Shown here one piece after another: positions 41,096 through 64,000 of a stretch of DNA of 64,000 nucleotides. The notes under the pieces are model-generated. The model was not told where the DNA came from. It was given only the letters and a program-made list of their open reading frames with translations, and searched no databases. A program made the position numbers and the translations under genes. The stretch spans positions 64,001 through 128,000 of the forward strand of contig JANNXA010000009.1 of assembly GCA_031409275.1 (NCBI GenBank), written 5' to 3'. The stretch's first letter is position 1. The number at the start of each line of letters is the position of its first letter. This stretch comes from Planctomycetota bacterium (lineage in GTDB: Bacteria > Planctomycetota > B15-G4 > SIAN01).

Positions 41096-42682
41096 GTGGA
41101 TCGGATTCGGACTCGTGGTTGCATCGTCCCCTTGGCCGCCGCGTTGAGCTGCTTCGCCTCCGCGGGCGCCGCGGCTCAAGTCAGCGTCGATTGGGTCGAT
41201 CTGACGCGCGGCAACAGCATCGCCGTCGACGCCGCCAACAACGTCTACACCGTCGACTTCGAACAGGCGCTCGGCGATGAGATCACGCTGACCAAGCGCG
41301 ACGTGAACGGCTCGCTGCTGTGGAACGCGAGCTACGACCAGACGGACGGCACGAAGTGGGAGGCCGCGACGTGGGTGACGGTCGACCACGCGGGCGACGT
41401 GATCGTGACCGGATCGCTGATGTCGGGCTACTCCAACCCGGTCAACGCCGCGAGCATCGCGATGAAGTTCGACGCGAACGGGAACTTCATCTGGCGCCAG
41501 GTCTACGAAAGTCCGTTCGACGGCTCGTACACGCGCAAGTGCCTCGTCGACGCCAACGACAACATCTACGTGCTGGGCATGGGCAGCGGCCCGAACGGCT
41601 TCGTGCCGAAGATCAAGAAGTTCGACTCGAGCGGCAATACGGTCTGGGACTGGTACGACACCACCGGCGTCGGCTTGCCGCTGAACTTCAAGCTCTCGCC
41701 CGACGGCTACCTGCTCGTCACGGGGCGTGGGATCACCGGCAGCGTGAACGGCTACGCGAAGGTCGACCTCGCCGGCCAGACGGTCTGGGGGTTCAACCTC
41801 GCGAGCTACACCATCGGCGACCTCGCCGGCGACTCGCTCGGCAACACCTACGTGCTGCACAGCGAGTACTACCCGAGCCCACGCAACGTCCTGACGAAGC
41901 TCGATGCTGCCGGCGTGCAGCTCTGGGAGACGCGCCATGACCTGCTGGCGCAGCGCATCGAGATCGCGCCCGACGACCTGCCGATCGCCTGCGGCTACCC
42001 GGTGACCGGCTTCGGCGCGGCGTTCCTCAAAGTGGACGCCAACGGCAACGAGATCTGGAAGAACCTTGACGCCGACGGCTCGCTGAGCCTCCTGCTGCAC
42101 GCGCAGATGGTGGTCGACGAGCGCGGCGCGGTCTACCTCGCGGCGGGCACCCTCTTCGACATGGCGATCTGCAAGGTGAACCCCGATGGCAGCTCGTCGT
42201 GGACGGCGACCACCGCAGGCAGCTACGCCTACGGGATGGCGCTCGGCATGCATGACAGCGGCGTCTTCGTGGTCGGCGGCCGGACCGCGCGCCTGATCGA
42301 TGGGACGGGCTCGCCGTGGACCGATCTCGGTCGCGGCTTGGCCGGTGCCGGCGGCATTCCGCGGTTGTGGGGCGCCGGCGATCTCACGCCGAGCAGCAAC
42401 GTCGAGCTCGACCTCGTCGACGCCGCGCCGAATGCGCCGACGCTGCTGGTGGTCGGCGCGAGCCGCATCGACCTGCCGCTCTTTGGCGGCACGCTGGTGC
42501 CGAATCTCGACGCGGTGATCAGCGGTCTCGTCACCGACGGCAGCGGCGCGTGGCAGATCGTCGACACCTGGCCGGACGACGTCGCAGTCGACAGCGAGTT
42601 CTTCGTGCAGACCTGGGTGGTCGACGCTGGCGCACCGCGCAAGCTGGCCGGCAGCAATGCGCTGCGGCTGGTCGCTCGCTGA
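41096..42682 (+). CDS. Secreted SBBP-like beta-propeller protein with conserved 121-aa C-terminal domain
   Basis: AAGGAG RBS, signal peptide and VD-x-x-GNxY...KxDxxGxxxW repeats. The CTD runs WTDLG...SNAL. Confidence 0.8.
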   Translation: MDRIRTRGCIVPLAAALSCFASAGAAAQVSVDWVDLTRGNSIAVDAANNVYTVDFEQALGDEITLTKRDVNGSLLWNASYDQTDGTKWEAATWVTVDHAGDVIVTGSLMSGYSNPVNAASIAMKFDANGNFIWRQVYESPFDGSYTRKCLVDANDNIYVLGMGSGPNGFVPKIKKFDSSGNTVWDWYDTTGVGLPLNFKLSPDGYLLVTGRGITGSVNGYAKVDLAGQTVWGFNLASYTIGDLAGDSLGNTYVLHSEYYPSPRNVLTKLDAAGVQLWETRHDLLAQRIEIAPDDLPIACGYPVTGFGAAFLKVDANGNEIWKNLDADGSLSLLLHAQMVVDERGAVYLAAGTLFDMAICKVNPDGSSSWTATTAGSYAYGMALGMHDSGVFVVGGRTARLIDGTGSPWTDLGRGLAGAGGIPRLWGAGDLTPSSNVELDLVDAAPNAPTLLVVGASRIDLPLFGGTLVPNLDAVISGLVTDGSGAWQIVDTWPDDVAVDSEFFVQTWVVDAGAPRKLAGSNALRLVAR

Positions 42683-42760
42683 GCCGATTCAAGCGCTCTC
42701 TCGGGCGCGCGTCGCAGGCCGATCCCTGCGGCGCGCGCCGCTCACGTCAGCGCGCACTGC

Positions 42761-43483
42761 TCAGCTCCGCTCGCCGGCACGCGCCAGCACCTCGCGCGCG
42801 GGGCCATCGTCGACGACGTTGCCATCCTGCAGGCGCACGACGCGGTCGGTGCGCGCGGCCAGTCGCGGGTCATGGGTGACCACGACGATCGTCTGTCCCT
42901 GCTGGCGCACCAACCGCTCGAAGAGCGCGAAGACGAGTTCGCCGTTCTTCGTGTCGAGGTTGCCGGTCGGCTCGTCGCCAAGCACGACGAGCGGGCGATT
43001 GGCGAGGCTGCGCGCGATGGCGACCCGCTGCTGTTCGCCGCCCGAGAGGCGACCGGGCAGGCGCCCTTCCTTGCCGGCGAGTCCGAGCAGGCCAAGCAGT
43101 TCGTAGGCGCGCTCGCGCGCTTCCTTTGCCGGAACGCCGAGCTTGCGCATCGGCAACCCGACATTCTCCGCCGCGCTGAACTCCGGCATCAGGTAGTGGA
43201 ACTGGAAGACGAAACCGATCTTCCGACCGCGCACGTCGGCGAGCGCCGCCTCCGACAGCGACCTGGTGTCGATGCCGTCGATCAGCACCTGCCCGCTGCT
43301 CGGCCGATCGAGCGCGCCGAGCAGGTACATCAGCGTCGACTTGCCGCTGCCCGACGGCCCCATGATCGAGCAGAACTCGCCGGGCCGGATCACCACGTCG
43401 AGCCCGTGCAGGATCTCGAGCTCGTTCTCGCCGCTGCCGAGCGTCCGGCGCAGCGCGCGCGTCTCCATCGCCGGCGCGATCAC
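42761..43483 (-). CDS. ABC transporter ATPase (LolD/MacB type)
   Basis: Motifs GPSGSGKS, LSGGEQQR, DEPTGNLD and VTHD. Confidence 0.93.
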   Translation of the reverse strand: MIAPAMETRALRRTLGSGENELEILHGLDVVIRPGEFCSIMGPSGSGKSTLMYLLGALDRPSSGQVLIDGIDTRSLSEAALADVRGRKIGFVFQFHYLMPEFSAAENVGLPMRKLGVPAKEARERAYELLGLLGLAGKEGRLPGRLSGGEQQRVAIARSLANRPLVVLGDEPTGNLDTKNGELVFALFERLVRQQGQTIVVVTHDPRLAARTDRVVRLQDGNVVDDGPAREVLARAGERS

Positions 43484-44763
43484 GCGCGGCCTCGCAATGT
43501 CACCACCGGATCGAGCCGCCCTGCGCGCAACGCCGGCAGGCACGCCGCGATCACCGTCGAAGCGAACGAGACCGTCGCCGCCACCGCATAGATGCGCAGC
43601 GGATCGACGAAGATCAGGTGCTCGATCTCGATCAGCCCTTTCATCGGGATCGGGAAGGTGGCCAGCGCCTGCTGCAGCCAGTAGCCGCCGATCGACCCGA
43701 AGACGACGCCGAGCGCGCCGATGGCCAGCCCCTCGAGCAGGAAGACCACGGTCACGTCGGCCGCGGTGTAGCCCATGCTCTTCAACATCGCGATCTCGGG
43801 CAGCTTCTCCAGCACCAGCATGATCAGCACGTTCAGGATGCCGAACGCCGCGACGATGGTGATGCCGCTGGTCACGACGTAGGTGATGACCGTCTGGATG
43901 TTGAACAGCGAGAGGAAGTTCTTGTTCTGCTCCTGCCAGCTTTCGCTGCGGTAGCCCACCATCGCCTCGAGGTCGGCGGCGACGTCCTGCGCTTGCGTGT
44001 GGTCGTCGAGCCGTACGACGATGCGGTTGACATCGCGGCCCAGCCCGAGCAGCTGCTGCGCGAGGCTGACCAGCGTGTAGGCGCGCACTGCGTCCACCGG
44101 CACGAGCCCGGTCTTGAAGACACCGACCACGCGCAGCGCGCGTGTCGTCCCCTCGCGCCCCCCCACCTCGCCGCTGCCGCGCAGCGACGCACCGATGGTG
44201 TCGCCGCGCCGCACGCCGAGCCGCTCGGCGAGCCCGCTGCCGAGCACGATCGCGCCGCTGGCCGAATGCAGGTCCGCGAGGCGCCCCTCGATCATGTAGG
44301 TATCGGTCGACACCACTCGGTCCTGGCGATCGGGATCGATGCCGACTAGCGCGGCGCCGACCTCGCGGTTGCCGAAGTTGAGGATCGACGTGCCCACGAC
44401 GTTGAGCGCCGCGGCGGCGACGCCGGGCCGCGACTCGATGGCCGCCAGCGTCTCGTAGGGTTTCTTGATGCGGTAGACGCGTTCGCGCGGGTGCGCCGAT
44501 TCGACCGTGACGACGCCCTGCTCCTTCTCCGAAAGCCAGTCGGCGAACTCGTCGGGCGGATCGCGGAACTCGTCCAGCACGGTGACGTGCGGGCTCGACT
44601 CGACCGTCTCGTCGACGAACTTCGCCTCGAAGCCCGCCATCAGCGCCGACATCAGCACCATGAAACAGTCGCCGATGGCGACGCCGGTGATCGACAGCGC
44701 GGTGCGAAACGGGCTGTGCAGCAGATGACGGCGCGCGATCTGGAAGAGCGGCAGGAATCGCAT
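43480..44763 (-). CDS. ABC transporter permease (LolC/E-FtsX type)
   Basis: One TM, a periplasmic domain and three TMs, with EIAMLKSMG and PALRAGRLDPV. Confidence 0.9.
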   Translation of the reverse strand: MRFLPLFQIARRHLLHSPFRTALSITGVAIGDCFMVLMSALMAGFEAKFVDETVESSPHVTVLDEFRDPPDEFADWLSEKEQGVVTVESAHPRERVYRIKKPYETLAAIESRPGVAAAALNVVGTSILNFGNREVGAALVGIDPDRQDRVVSTDTYMIEGRLADLHSASGAIVLGSGLAERLGVRRGDTIGASLRGSGEVGGREGTTRALRVVGVFKTGLVPVDAVRAYTLVSLAQQLLGLGRDVNRIVVRLDDHTQAQDVAADLEAMVGYRSESWQEQNKNFLSLFNIQTVITYVVTSGITIVAAFGILNVLIMLVLEKLPEIAMLKSMGYTAADVTVVFLLEGLAIGALGVVFGSIGGYWLQQALATFPIPMKGLIEIEHLIFVDPLRIYAVAATVSFASTVIAACLPALRAGRLDPVVTLRGRA

Positions 44764-44766
44764 GAG

Positions 44767-46011
44767 CTACTTCGCCGCGGCGGGCGCCGCGACCTTGCGG
44801 ACCTGCACGCGCGCCTCATCCTTCAACGCGCCGAGGTGGTCGAGCGCGACGGCGTCACCAGCGGCGAGCCCTGCGCGCGCCTCGCAACGGTCGTAGTTCA
44901 TCAGGCCGACGTCGACCTGCACTTCGTGAGCGACGCCATCGCGGACGACGAAGACCGAGCTGCGCAGCGTCAGCGCCGAGCGCGGGAACGACAGCGCATC
45001 GTCCTTCTCGCCCACCACGATGCCGAGCTCGCACGACGAGCCGATCAGCAGCGCGCGTCCGCCGTCGGCGCGCGTGACGCCCGCGAGCCCCTTCGCACCG
45101 CTCGCCGTGAAGCGTGCGCCAGGGAACTCGACGCGCACGCGGTAGCTGCGAGTCACCTTGTTCGAGTCGGGGAAGAGCTCGACGACACGCCCTTCGACCA
45201 GCGCCGACTCGTCGCCCGCGACGCGCACCAGCACGCGCTGGCCCGCCACGACGCTGGCCGCATCCTCTTCGTCGACTTCCCCTTCGACCCAGAGCGAACG
45301 CGCATCGCCGAACTTCAGCAGATCGCGCTCGGGGTTCACCGACTCGCCCTCTTCCGCGAAGCGCGCCAGCACGACGCCATCGAAGGGCGCGCGCAGCGTG
45401 TCGTCCTGCTCGGCGGCGCGCAGCACCTCGAGCTCGGCGGCTGCCTGCTCGCGGCGCGTCGTGCGCTCGGCCAGCGTCTGCGCGAGCTCCTGCTCCGCGA
45501 GCGCGAGGCGTTGCGCCGCTCCATCGTGCGCCGCTTGCAGCTCCTGCCAGGCGCGCACTTCGATCAGCCCCTGCTCGCGCAACGGCTGCGCGCGCGCCAC
45601 TTCGCTGACGGCCCAATCGACCTGGACGCGTGCGTCGGCGATGCGCGCCTGCGCGGCTCGGCGTAGCGCGCTGCCCTCGGAAAGGTCGGCGTCGAGTCGA
45701 TCGAGCTGCGCCAGGACGCTCGCCTGCCGCTGAGCGCGGGCACTGTCCCGCAAGGCGACCAGCGGCTCGCCGGCGCGGACTTCCGCGCCCTCCCTCGCGA
45801 AGATTCGCTCGACGATGGCGGGGCGTGCGGGGCGCAGCAGCCGGCGCTCGCGCGGCTCGATCCAGCCGGTGGCGAAGACGGTGGCGACGACTGGCCCGCG
45901 CTCGACCGAACCGGTGCGCGCCTCGATGGGCTGGCCGAAACGGCGCCAAAGAGCGAGGCCGCCGGCCCCGAGCAACGCCACGACCAGCAACCAGCCAAGC
46001 AGACGTCCCAC
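44767..46011 (-). CDS. HlyD/MacA-like periplasmic adaptor
   Basis: N-terminal TM, REGAEVRAGEPL, coiled coil and LRAPFDGVV. Confidence 0.85.
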   Translation of the reverse strand: MGRLLGWLLVVALLGAGGLALWRRFGQPIEARTGSVERGPVVATVFATGWIEPRERRLLRPARPAIVERIFAREGAEVRAGEPLVALRDSARAQRQASVLAQLDRLDADLSEGSALRRAAQARIADARVQVDWAVSEVARAQPLREQGLIEVRAWQELQAAHDGAAQRLALAEQELAQTLAERTTRREQAAAELEVLRAAEQDDTLRAPFDGVVLARFAEEGESVNPERDLLKFGDARSLWVEGEVDEEDAASVVAGQRVLVRVAGDESALVEGRVVELFPDSNKVTRSYRVRVEFPGARFTASGAKGLAGVTRADGGRALLIGSSCELGIVVGEKDDALSFPRSALTLRSSVFVVRDGVAHEVQVDVGLMNYDRCEARAGLAAGDAVALDHLGALKDEARVQVRKVAAPAAAK

Positions 46012-46107
46012 CTGCGCGCTCCTGCCCTCTTCGCCCCATCCGATTGCGAGCGGCGTGCCGAACCTCGCGCCCCTTCCTACCATGCGCCGCCCCGAAGCCT
46101 CAGGAGC

Positions 46108-46563
46108 ATGCCGATGGTCGCGCCGCCTCGTCTCGCCGCCGCCCCGCTCCTCGCGACTGCGCTCGCCGTGCTGCTTTGCCAGGGTTGCAGCAACGTGCCG
46201 CCGGAGGGGCGCGCGCGCCTCGAGCGGCAGTTGCCCGAACAGTCGCTCTCGCTGCCACCCGCCGACGTCGCGCGCGCCGCCGTGCACGCCGATGACCGTG
46301 TGACTTGCCTGCTGGTGCGCGCCACCGGCCCGATCGTTCCCCATCGCCACTTCCACAGCGAGGAGATCGTCTACGTGATCTCCGGACGCGGCGTCCTCCA
46401 CCTCGCCGATGGCGATCGCGACGTGGCGCCAGGCGACCTGATCGTGGTGCCACCCAACACGCCGCACGGCTTCACGCCGAGCAGCGAAGAGCCGGTGGTG
46501 CTGCTCGCGACGTTCGTGCCGCCGCTGCGCGAAGGGGATCGGGTGCCGGAAGTGGAGCGCTGA
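46108..46563 (+). CDS. Cupin-domain lipoprotein
   Basis: Motifs PHRHFHSEEIVYV and PPNTPHGF, with lipobox CQGC. Confidence 0.85.
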   Translation: MPMVAPPRLAAAPLLATALAVLLCQGCSNVPPEGRARLERQLPEQSLSLPPADVARAAVHADDRVTCLLVRATGPIVPHRHFHSEEIVYVISGRGVLHLADGDRDVAPGDLIVVPPNTPHGFTPSSEEPVVLLATFVPPLREGDRVPEVER

Positions 46564-46883
46564 GAGACGCGACGTCGGTTCCCGAAGTTGGACGGCAGCT
46601 CCAATCGATGGAGTGACGCAGCGGCGCGTTGTTCGCGCTGATCGGCGATGAGCGCCGTGACGCCGCTCAACATCGTCGCCCGCTTCACCCGCGCGATCGA
46701 CGCCAGCCGCGAGAACGTCACCACCTTCGCCAGCGACGCGCTCGACCTCGCCGTCGCGACGGAACGCGGTTCGCTTACTGCTTCGAAGCGATCGGCGATC
46801 TTGAAGAAGTTTCACGAACGTTCTGCGTTCGACTCGCAGGCGCGACGACGCTGCGCAGAGCCTCGGCGGAGCGGAGCAGGGAG

Positions 46884-48272
46884 ATGAAGATGAAGACGAG
46901 CCTCGGAGCGCTTCTCGTGGCGGTGCCGCTGTTCATGGGGACGGGCGCGCATGCGCAGACCGTCACCATCACGGACCTGCCTCTCCTCCCCGGTGGCACC
47001 TACGCCTCCGCGTATGGCATCGACGACACCGGCAAGATCGTGGGCGTGGCCAACGATTCGAGCTTCGCGTTGCGAACGGTGCAGTGGGTCAACGGCCAGA
47101 TCTCCGTCATTCCGGATCTCGGCGGTGGCTTGGCCGTACCCGAAGACCTCAATGACGCGGGCGAGATTGCAGGGGGACAGGACCTCGGCAAGGGCGGTCA
47201 CTTGGGCATCTATTGGGATTCCCAGAACAACCCGTTCCAGCTTCCAGGCCTCCCGAGCGGCACGTCGAACAGCCAGTGGGCGCACGGAATCAACTCGATC
47301 GGACAAGTCGTTGGAATGGCCCAGGAGGGGGCGCCGAACTTCTGGGGCCACGCGGTCATCTGGCTCGGAAGCTCATTTCAGACGGACCTCGGGTTCATGG
47401 GCGGAGGCACCTATTCGGAAGCGTACGGCATCAACGACTTGGGCGAAGTCGTGGGGGTTGCATCCGTCGCGAACACGAATCAACACGCCTTCCTCTGGAA
47501 GGGCGGACAGTACACGGATCTCAGCACGTGGAGCGGCGGCGGCGCCAGCTCAAAGGCCTACTCGATCAACCGTCACGGCGTGATCGTCGGCTTGAACGCC
47601 AACGTCGCGTCGGTCTTCGAGGACGGCGTCGTGACCGCGCTGAAGATGCCGCGCGGCGTGTCGGCCTACACGCCAGCCATCGACATCAACGACAACGGCG
47701 ACATCATCGCGACCGGCTCCAAGGGCTATCCGATCGACGTCGGCGTCCTCTGGCGCAACCGGACGGCGATCGACCTCGGAACGCTCCCCGGTGGCACGAT
47801 CAGCCGTGCGTATCACCTCAATGCGTCCGGCGAGATCGTCGGCGCGGCGAACACGACGAGCGGCTACTTCCACGCCGTGAAATGGACCGTCACTCCCACG
47901 CCGACCTGGACGGACCTCGGTCATGTGTTGCCGGGAAGCACCGGCGCACCGCTCCTCGTCGGCAGCGGTGACCTCAGCGCCAACTCCACCATCACGGTCA
48001 CCATGAGCAACGGACTGCCCAACGCCCTGATGTTCACGGTGCTCGGGATCAACTCGCTGTATGCGCCGCTGTTCGGTGGCGTGCTCGTCCCTGCGCCCAC
48101 CGTGGTCTTTCCGGCGGTTCAGCTTGATGGCTCCGGCAGCGTGACGATCACGGACACCATGCCGCCCGGCATTCCCTCGGGCAGCGTCTACTTCATCCAG
48201 AACTGGATCCTCGATCCGGTGGGGCCGCGCGGCTTGGCCGCGTCGAACGCGCTCAAGGCAACGACCCCCTGA
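46884..48272 (+). CDS. Secreted HAF-repeat protein with conserved 121-aa C-terminal domain
   Basis: Repeats DLG...S.AYGIN..G.VVG...HAFLW. The CTD runs WTDLG...SNAL. Confidence 0.85.
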   Translation: MKMKTSLGALLVAVPLFMGTGAHAQTVTITDLPLLPGGTYASAYGIDDTGKIVGVANDSSFALRTVQWVNGQISVIPDLGGGLAVPEDLNDAGEIAGGQDLGKGGHLGIYWDSQNNPFQLPGLPSGTSNSQWAHGINSIGQVVGMAQEGAPNFWGHAVIWLGSSFQTDLGFMGGGTYSEAYGINDLGEVVGVASVANTNQHAFLWKGGQYTDLSTWSGGGASSKAYSINRHGVIVGLNANVASVFEDGVVTALKMPRGVSAYTPAIDINDNGDIIATGSKGYPIDVGVLWRNRTAIDLGTLPGGTISRAYHLNASGEIVGAANTTSGYFHAVKWTVTPTPTWTDLGHVLPGSTGAPLLVGSGDLSANSTITVTMSNGLPNALMFTVLGINSLYAPLFGGVLVPAPTVVFPAVQLDGSGSVTITDTMPPGIPSGSVYFIQNWILDPVGPRGLAASNALKATTP

Positions 48273-52809: not shown

Positions 52810-53004
52810 TAATCTCCGCCGCCGCTTGGAACGACGGTCGTCACGTCCGCGCCCAACGAGGTGGGAACATCCGGGGTGCCGCAGGCGTACGAAACGTCCG
52901 ATCCAGACGATCGCACGGCATCGGTGCGCCGCGAGATCGAGATCGACGAATCACAAGCACCCAAGGACAAGGCGGCGTGCGCCGTCATGCAGATGGAGGT
53001 GGAG

Positions 53005-54117
53005 ATGCGCTGTTGGCTCCTCGTCGCGGGAGCAGTCGTGCTGCTTGGAGGCGGACTCCGGGCACAGGACACCCTCGACAAGATTCAGAAAGAGACGAAC
53101 CTCGTCCTGGCGCGCGGCGCCAAGGCGGGTCCGGACCTCGCCGAGATCGAGCGCCTGCTCGGTCGCGCGCGGGACCTCTCGATCGACCTCAAGGCCGACG
53201 ACGAGGGGTTGCGGGCGAGCTTGCTGGTGCTCGACCTGTCGAGCTTCCTTGCGGAGGAGCGACAGAGCGAGCTCTTCACCGAGGTCTTCGACTCGCTGAT
53301 CGAGAACCACCTGCAGAGCGATGGGCTGGCGCAGGTCGTTCTGATGCGGCTGGCCAACCCTGCTCCCCACCTCGCGAAGGCGGCGGGCGAGTACTTCGAC
53401 TGGATCGCGCGCGATTCGAAGTCGAAGCCGGTGCAGGCGGCGTGCAAGTACACCCGTCTCACCAAGGACGCGGCAGCGGCCGGGAATGTCGCCGACGTGA
53501 AGAAGATGGTGGCGAAGCTCGAGGCGCTGAAGGCGGAGATCGGCAAGGAGCCGGCCGCGTTCGGTCAGACCTACGGGCAGATGCTCGACGAGTTGATCGA
53601 GTCGCTGAAGATCGTCGGGACGCCGGCCCCTGAAATCGAGGGCAAGGACCTCGACGGCGTCGCGTTCAAGCTCTCCGACTATCACGGCAAGGTCGTGCTG
53701 CTCGACTTCTGGGGCTATTGGTGAGGCCCTTGCCGGGGCATGTTCCCGCACGAGCGGTCGCTCGTGGCACGACTGAAGGATGATCCTTTCGCTCTGGTCG
53801 GAGTGAACAGCGACGAGAACTTCGAGGAGCTGAAGAAGAAGGAGTACCTCGAAGAGAAGATCACTTGGCGCAGCTTCCAGAACAGCGCGGCGACGCCGCC
53901 GATCTCGGAGCAGTGGAAGGTGAGTGGCTGGCCCACGCTCTACCTCGTCGACGCCGAAGGCAAGCTGCGCAAGAAGTGGATCGGCAGCCCGAGCGAAGCG
54001 GAGCTCGACGCGGCGATTGATGGCCTCGTGGCCGAAGCCACAGCGGGCAAAGGCAAGGCCGCTCCCGCCAAGCCCGTGAAGAAGGCCGATCCGAAGAAGA
54101 GCGGCGCTCCGAACTGA
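53005..54117 (+). CDS. Secreted TlpA/ResA-like thioredoxin selenoprotein (Sec at residue 240)
   Basis: GKVVLLDFWGYW-TGA-GPCRGMFPHERSLV is in frame. Joining the two track ORFs gives one 370-aa protein with a UGPC active site and GWPT cis-Pro loop. Confidence 0.9.
53749..53766 (+). promoter_or_regulatory. Candidate bacterial SECIS hairpin
   Basis: CACGAGC-GGTC-GCTCGTG. The G-starting loop lies 31 nt after the UGA. Confidence 0.6.
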
Positions 54118-63242: not shown

Positions 63243-64000
63243 ATGGTCGCTCGCCCGCTCGCCGTACTCGCCGCGGTACTGCTCACGACCGGCGCCGCCA
63301 CGGCGCAGATCCAGTTCGGCTATCGGGCGCTCGCGCTGCTGCCTGGCGACCAGCTCGCAACGCCCATCGCGATGAACGCACATGGAGACATCGTCGGCAC
63401 GTCGTTCGACGCCGCCTACGTCGCCTGCGCGACGCTCTGGATCGATGGCGTACCGCAATCGCTCGGCACGCTGCCGGGAACGACCTCGTCGTACGCCCTC
63501 GCACTCAACCAACTGCGCGAGGTCGTCGGGATCTCGACGACGAGCGGATCACCTGACCGGTCCGCCTGGATCTGGGACGCCGTGAACGGCATGCGCGAGC
63601 TGCCGCCACCGATCGGCCACTCCAACGCGATGGCCCGCGACCTCAACGAGTCCGGGACGATCATCGGCTCCTCCGTCGACGCGAGCGGGTTCACGCAGAT
63701 CGTCCGATGGGATCACCTCGGCGCGGCGACGCTGCTCGGCGTCCCTGCCGGCTACGACGACGCGGCCCCGGCCGGGATCAACCGCTTCGGCGAGATCTGC
63801 GGAACCGCGACTGCGTCGGGTGGCCGCGTCGCCGATGCGCTGCGTTACGACGACGTCAACGGATTCCGCATGCTGCCGCCGCCCGGAACCGGACGCACCT
63901 CTTCCAACGACATCCGTGATGACGGCATCGTTTGCGGCGCCGCAACCGATGACGGCGAGCTCATCACCTGGAACGGACTGGTGCCGACCTCGCTCGGCTT
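63243..64000 (+). CDS. Secreted HAF-repeat protein, 3' partial (absent from the ORF track)
   Basis: AGGAG RBS, signal [14 protein letters not shown]...AQ and [17 protein letters not shown] repeats. The frame is open to the window end. Confidence 0.8.

Follow-up and report, generated by a model that had tools for sequence, protein, structure and literature searches.

The stretch of DNA analyzed here (the window) comprises 64,000 nucleotides from a Planctomycetota bacterium (assembly GCA_031409275.1, contig JANNXA010000009.1, positions 64,001 to 128,000 of the forward strand). Two genes of the window, referred to below as carrier 1 (41096..42682) and carrier 2 (46884..48272), end in related domains of 121 residues, and this terminal domain is the subject of the present analysis. 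The domain is real, widespread, lineage-specific and uncatalogued. We tentatively favor a reading in which it is a self-contained immunoglobulin-like (Ig-like) module that would dock about 110 exported proteins per cell, non-covalently and without being cleaved, on one shared envelope partner encoded by the cell, in the manner of a dockerin. A preliminary description of the window had taken the domain for a sorting or anchoring module. Part of that view stands, in that the domain occurs as one terminal copy per exported protein and exchanges with known tails in the same slot, whereas the strictly C-terminal position that went with it does not hold.

The terminal domain and its distribution

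Copies 1 and 2 of the domain lie at 42317..42682 and 47907..48272, both on the + strand. Each is 366 nt including the stop, and each 121-aa stretch terminates at a stop codon. As first described (at about 40% identity), they align without gaps, with 50 of 117 residues identical (43%; BLASTP, E 2e-31). The proteins to which they are attached, here called passengers, are indeed different. Carrier 1 (+ strand; start codon uncertain, GTG at 41096 taken) consists of a signal peptide, an SBBP-like beta-propeller and the domain; its passenger hits NF047494, a model of SBBP propeller lipoproteins, with an E of 7.5e-17, under the cut-off of the model, and Pfam SBBP at E 0.18 only. Carrier 2 (+ strand) has a signal peptide, a propeller with four HAF repeats (TIGR02913, over cut-off) and the domain. 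Judged by eye, both N-termini resemble Sec signal peptides, as had been proposed (…ASAGAAA followed by Q, and …MGTGAHA followed by Q).

The genomes that matter most for the comparison are the source genome (G000), three genomes of the same genus (G004, G003 and G001), one of a sister genus (G005), and G006, G009 (73% complete), G010 (90% complete) and the distant, small genome G183 (86% complete). Carrier 1 has an ortholog that is 78% identical in G004 and one that is 62% identical over 391 aa of passenger in G009, and the G009 ortholog of carrier 2 is 67% identical over 333 aa.

The domain is far from limited to the two genes on which it was noticed. An iterated profile run on all six-frame open reading frames (ORFs) of the source genome found 68 domain ORFs. 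The addition of two further seeds led to three domain subfamilies, and the three profiles, applied to the 4,139 genes called in this analysis, found 112 carriers (about 2.7% of genes) with one copy each. The copies are mutually 19-50% identical. The three subfamilies align with one another at an hhalign probability of 97-99%, and when the profiles were run on reversed sequences (ORFs or genes) as a control, their best E values were 3.0, 0.12 and 0.49. By a crude filter, 80 of the 112 carriers have a signal peptide. The domain is C-terminal in 103 carriers, N-terminal in nine and internal in none; eight of the nine are whole genes with the domain right behind the signal peptide, and the ninth is a fragment. 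The position is therefore terminal but not strictly C-terminal. In 116 of 117 database hits the domain lies at the C-terminus and in one at the N-terminus, and it is never internal or doubled; in G183 it precedes the passenger in 5 of 39 carriers. A third carrier of the window, a 456-aa protein with a HAF-type propeller (63243..64000, + strand), extends as far as 64613, past the end of the window, and has a divergent copy of the second subfamily at its end; because that copy seeded the second subfamily, its tie to the main family rests on profile comparison.

In a search of relatives, a single-copy query matched 30 of 31 genomes, with 60 matches in G004, 87 in G006, 116 in G009 and at least 144 in the top genome. 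An alignment query matched 65 of 301 Planctomycetota genomes (14 candidates per genome scored), and the distribution is near all-or-none by family.

Some individual copies deserve mention in their own right. Four tandem paralogs in the source genome (C9:26350-31192) have the domain N-terminal, followed by a common domain of about 200 aa, and two copies in G003 (one in L319 on C9, the other at C44:62805-63161) contain an internal TAA stop. A kinase with the domain (P0349) is apparently a read-through of two genes and was left out as evidence on location.

The AlphaFold2 model of copy 2 is an all-beta, Ig-like sandwich (mean predicted local distance difference test score, pLDDT, 97.2; predicted template modeling score, pTM, 0.88). 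The end of the chain is strand G of the folded domain, and the final residues are mostly Q, E, R or P. With this model, Foldseek gave template modeling (TM) scores of 0.51-0.54 at best, and a wide fold search gave a best Z of 8.1, with a root-mean-square deviation of 2.6-2.9 over 86-100 residues, tied among unrelated Ig and macroglobulin domains. For searches of this kind such scores are at background level and imply no common function. The matches listed include no C-terminal domain (CTD) of the type IX secretion system (T9SS) and no cohesin, although the listing does not exclude them.

As the preliminary description had supposed, no existing name fits. Among 42 members there were two stray matches in Pfam (best E 0.005) and four in NCBIfam (best E 0.01), and the best E among PDB sequences was 0.016, none of them usable; the 30 nearest clusters in the ESM Atlas are hypothetical Planctomycetota proteins with no Pfam family in common. 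A description of the domain was not found in the literature on Planctomycetota secreted proteins, on envelope and surface layer, or on dockerin and sorting domains, a scope with few subscription papers, and a word search of the main text of the Saltatorellota preprint (10.1101/817700) found nothing on secretion or such a domain.

A genus-specific signature at residues 83-84

A clue to function comes from a two-residue signature at the end of strand E in the model, which we call the barcode. Residues 83-84 include Asp or Glu in 74 of 77 copies from the four congeneric genomes, as against 0-17% of copies elsewhere. Within the genus the counts are 38/41 in G000 (2 of 43 rows dropped, the anchor column being absent), 30/30 in G004, 5/5 in G003 and 1/1 in G001. 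Outside it they are 1/6 in G005, 2/32 in G006, 2/30 in G009 and 0/21 in G183, with 0/18 among single copies from other genomes and 0/20 among HAF homologs; the comparison sets overlap by two sequences, and the counts for G004, G006 and G009 cover the best 30-32 of 60, 87 and 116 matches, respectively. Both copies in the window have Asp-Thr at this place (42563..42568 and 48153..48158, + strand), whereas their G009 orthologs have Gly-Thr.

Of 1,071 contrasts (column pair by residue class), the barcode is the largest to hold in both main subfamilies, with a minimum difference of 0.87 in both and 0.53 for the next non-overlapping contrast. For G009 this site again ranks first, with Gly, and for G006 it ranks second, with a hydrophobic residue. 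Acidity elsewhere in the domain is equal in G006 (0.075 vs 0.069), so the barcode does not reflect general composition. In the third subfamily, represented by G000 copies only, an acid stands at the matching place in 30 of 36 copies, tied with a turn Asp. When a tree was built without the barcode columns, the genus copies were scattered over it, with 10 label changes. Because the barcode is common to the copies of one genus, all copies in a cell presumably meet one partner.

Passengers and the tail slot

The passengers that could be cut out of the source-genome carriers, with names taken from motifs and from the Pfam annotation of homologs, form 36 clusters. With 35 members FG-GAP is the biggest, followed by a PD40-like cluster and a second FG-GAP type with 9 each; others include Kelch-like propellers, cytochrome c peroxidase-like proteins and a nine-haem protein. 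When the best 67 of 120 listed homologs of the HAF propeller were examined for tail type, close homologs (54-76% identical) were found to end variously in this domain, in two-Cys sandwiches or in other tails. The latter include a tail labeled GC-type dockerin by NCBI (P0034, with P0050 and P0051 occupying the slot likewise), FlgD-Ig (P0029), PKD (P0032) and a short FADGFE motif (P0007); PF18962 (P0099) is found on homologs of this passenger as well. The passenger shifts between lineages and adopts the local tail, as expected for a localization module. Unnamed tails on this propeller include the FADGFE motif, whose source is named Holophagae, and, in P0037, a domain that is rich in Lys and contains Cys.

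Two proteins have little besides the domain. One in G183 (L179:1322-1807, 161 aa) is a signal peptide plus the domain, and one in the source genome (C47:17394-18023; L306) is signal, domain and an 85-aa Ser/Asp/Asn/Lys repeat tail. A tag made to be cleaved off would presumably serve no purpose where there is no cargo, so such proteins speak for attachment, and on the choice between an export tag and an attachment tag the evidence leans toward attachment. The repeat tail resembles an SD-repeat stalk without a C-terminal anchor.

The only carrier neighborhood conserved between G000 and G183 is an operon in which the carrier comes first, together with a TonB-dependent receptor, ExbB/ExbD, TonB and a tetratricopeptide repeat protein (C34:111794-123609 in the source genome; L196:7458-18844). 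This operon hints at an outer-surface location for its carrier.

A candidate partner

About 2.3 of the 2.4 Mb of G183 was read for the partner search, which gave 250 exported reciprocal best hits; 81 of these were scanned in Pfam and four were profiled over 45 genomes. The tightest of the four co-occurrence profiles belongs to a lipoprotein of about 1,040 aa (C22:50368-53481 in the source genome), which is the best candidate for a partner of the domain. It is found in 23/23 domain-bearing genomes, in 0/2 with a single match and in 1/20 that are domain-free, the sole domain-free match being weak (7e-9) and on an unrelated 4,848-aa frame; in the relatives search it is present in 31/31 genomes, G000 included. 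The model shows two Ig-like domains and a YVTN propeller (pLDDT 87), and the top PDB match of the propeller is the YVTN propeller of an archaeal surface-layer protein (1l0q). In the source genome, three such lipoproteins of about 1,040-1,100 aa lie in tandem (C22:42436-54433; L292) beside a CPBP (Rce1-like) protease and UbiX/UbiA-like genes, and the adjacency of lipoprotein and protease also occurs in G183 (L172:13715-17400).

The other three profiled candidates were set aside, the small partner of a secretin and a giant pseudopilin because both occur in domain-free genomes, and with them a Big_5 lipoprotein, which is found in 11/23 domain-bearing genomes (0/2 single-match, 1/20 domain-free). 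None of the Lys-rich exported proteins stood out as a partner, and a single scan of internal repeats for a scaffoldin yielded nothing. The secretin pair combines a short, lipoprotein-type secretin with an exported protein of 140-149 aa that has no Pfam family (C27:157059-158911 in G000, L291; also L208:12671-14357), the small protein being present in 27 of the 45 Planctomycetota genomes. The giant pseudopilin, a pseudopilin-like protein of 1,685 aa, belongs to a pilin and PilM-like cluster (C51:222390-227447 in G000, L294; also L152:10855-15918), found in 31 of the 45.

Proposed mechanism and alternative explanations

In the docking model, the carriers would be exported by Sec and then fold in the periplasm. 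They might cross the outer membrane through the resident type II secretion system (T2SS), and one envelope partner would capture them non-covalently through the strand-E face. Residues 83-84 would be the recognition residues, co-evolving with the partner in each lineage, and the partner may be the Ig/YVTN lipoprotein. Non-covalent anchors work at either chain end. A more specific version, which we consider unlikely as a whole, is a surface-display system in which the lipid-anchored lipoprotein acts as a scaffold that captures 40 to more than 140 proteins per cell, and in which every lineage alters the strand-E barcode in its own way, which would let a cell retain only its own proteins.

Several observations weigh against these proposals. 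The barcode is strong as a pattern but is one lineage-level event. On the well-supported branches of the tree there are only four independent pairs, with 3.7 changes in the same direction and 0 in the opposite one (p 0.125). The 17 passenger-matched pairs are in line with the barcode, the non-genus copy being acidic in two and the G000 match in 14, but they draw on six G000 genes only, and three pairs have no acid on either side. The lipoprotein was picked by eye among the 250 candidates, and clade markers mimic its profile because the domain-bearing genomes are probably one clade; the profiles of the secretin partner (22/23, 1/2 and 4/20 at E<=1e-3) and of the giant pseudopilin (23/23, 1/2 and 7/20) are like those of such markers. 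In the lipoprotein, no basic residue was found that is clearly confined to the barcoded genus. About 110 clients would have to share one to five lipoprotein genes, and the surface location of the carriers is presumed.

The main alternative, itself rather unlikely, is that the domain is a folded secretion signal for the T2SS. The surface that the barcode fits would then be a lineage-specific one, on GspC, on GspD or at the tip of the pseudopilus, and release or anchoring of the cargo by other means would follow. The machinery is at hand: the source genome has six secretins and a gspDEFGHIJ cluster in common with G183, and the N-terminal part of its GspD was found in 30 of the 31 genomes of the relatives search. 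Because the T9SS protein PorV (PF19572) was found in none of these 31 genomes (control positive in Bacteroides), the proteins must have a different way through the outer membrane. One study also describes T2SS recruitment as structural and species-specific, with orthologs that are 67% identical not being cross-secreted (PMC7949064). However, no genus-specific basic residue was seen in the GspD N0 region of 29 aligned sequences, two such sites lying farther along the chain, and the occurrence of the giant pseudopilin in 7 of 20 domain-free genomes and the existence of domain-only and domain-plus-stalk proteins argue against such a signal. The domain-only proteins would suit another unlikely proposal, in which the domain binds a non-protein envelope polymer (lipopolysaccharide core, O-antigen or capsule) or assembles with itself to form a surface lattice held by cation bridges, so that the acid patch tracks the glycan or lipid chemistry of the genus. 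Genus copies average about three acids at positions 82-88, vs 0-1.1 elsewhere, which could form a cation site; terminal glycan-binding anchors are known at either chain end; and one weak Foldseek match is the Deinococcus HPI surface layer (TM 0.46). On the other hand, no carbohydrate-binding module is prominent in the fold searches, and the acid patch and the basic hairpin at 106-111 do not vary together, Lys/Arg of the hairpin being kept in 21/30 G009 and 19/32 G006 copies that lack the acid, so that simple charge-complementary self-assembly is unsupported.

It is improbable that the domain is a passive Ig-like cap or spacer that has been spread by recombination, with a signature due to gene conversion or drift. 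The fold is generic, as the tied Z scores illustrate, and copies within a genome partly cluster on the tree, but a passive cap would hardly account for two positions held in common by genus across three subfamilies of such divergent copies, or for a domain that is never internal and never repeated. Least probable is that the domain marks the substrates of the exporter that the two carriers flank in the window. This exporter consists of a LolD-like ATP-binding cassette (ABC) ATPase (42761..43468, - strand), a MacB/LolCE-like permease with MacB_PCD and FtsX domains (43480..44763, - strand) and a resistance-nodulation-division-type membrane-fusion protein (MFP; 44767..46083, - strand, start uncertain). 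The flanking position noted in the preliminary description is correct, and the order carrier-ABC-MFP-carrier is kept in G004, with the MFP also in G005. Nevertheless, the exporter lies on the strand opposite both carriers, a gene for a cupin-domain protein with a lipoprotein-like signal (46108..46563, + strand) intervenes, and the components are of the LolCDE/MacB type and not type I secretion ABC proteins, whereas the signals of the carriers are Sec-like. At E<=1e-20 an ortholog of the MFP was found in neither G006 nor G009, both rich in domain copies, and the best match in the G183 DNA read is 25% identical. Of all G000 genes, 11% sit within three genes of a carrier. The functional link was therefore rejected, and these genes are judged to lie outside the system.

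A further observation in the window is independent of the domain. Two in-frame ORFs at 52876-54117 (+ strand) are split by a TGA in the context FWGYW-TGA-GPC, a thioredoxin-like UxxC motif, and from its sequence the pair is probably a single selenoprotein gene.

The domain probably organizes much of the exported proteome in a large, mostly uncultured branch of the Planctomycetota for which neither an anchoring nor a sorting system is known. The barcode names the probable binding face and predicts a single partner for all copies, which makes function testable, and the co-occurring lipoprotein is a concrete first candidate. The surface-display version, if true, would be an undescribed system in about a fifth of sampled Planctomycetota genomes, and a diderm counterpart of cohesin-dockerin made of unrelated folds.

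Comparison with known systems

The sortase-type tails, PEP-CTERM/exosortase, GlyGly-CTERM/rhombosortase and MYXO-CTERM/myxosortase, resemble the domain in that many tagged proteins go to one presumed partner, and PEP-CTERM had been offered as an analogy. These tails are short, consist of a motif, a helix and a basic stretch, and undergo cleavage in the membrane (10.1101/2023.06.07.544157). The present domain, in contrast, is soluble and folded, with no membrane helix or basic tail, and exosortase (PF09721), although found in 3 of 5 genomes, was not found in domain-bearing G010 or G183; the analogy fails. The species-specific T2SS determinants on the Fn3 domain of Pel3/PelI are a parallel in another respect: orthologs from related genera differ in a beta-sandwich surface, which the machinery of the lineage may recognize (PMC7949064). 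There, however, several loops of a single enzyme carry the signal, whereas here one portable domain occurs on about 110 proteins. Macroglobulin (MG) and Ig domains, PmoD and superoxide reductase share only the general sandwich topology, at background scores.

The T9SS CTD (PF18962/TIGR04183) and FlgD-Ig (PF13860) are likewise C-terminal Ig-like sandwiches on dozens to hundreds of Sec-exported proteins, and both kinds of tail occur on homologs of the same HAF passenger. The T9SS analogy of the preliminary description survives in function only. None of the 42 domain members matches the T9SS models PF18962, TIGR04183 or TIGR04131, nor was a match to PF13860 seen; the T9SS domain is shorter, at about 75 aa; PorV was not found in the 31 genomes of the relatives search; and unlike the T9SS CTD the present domain can also be N-terminal. 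SprA (PF14349) was found in 0 of 31 genomes, the control genomes likewise being without a match.

Dockerin type I (PF00404) and the Phycisphaerae GC-type dockerin share with the domain the property of being a terminal module on many unrelated exported proteins, and the GC-type dockerin takes the same slot on close HAF-propeller homologs. Lineage-wide recognition residues are described for dockerins (PMC5748583), much as found here at residues 83-84. The structures are different, the dockerin being a duplicated calcium loop-helix and this domain an all-beta sandwich; no PF00404 match was found in G000, and the cohesin partner (PF00963) was found in none of the five genomes searched (control positive). 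In its way of working the domain comes closest to dockerins and T9SS tails, but it belongs to neither family.

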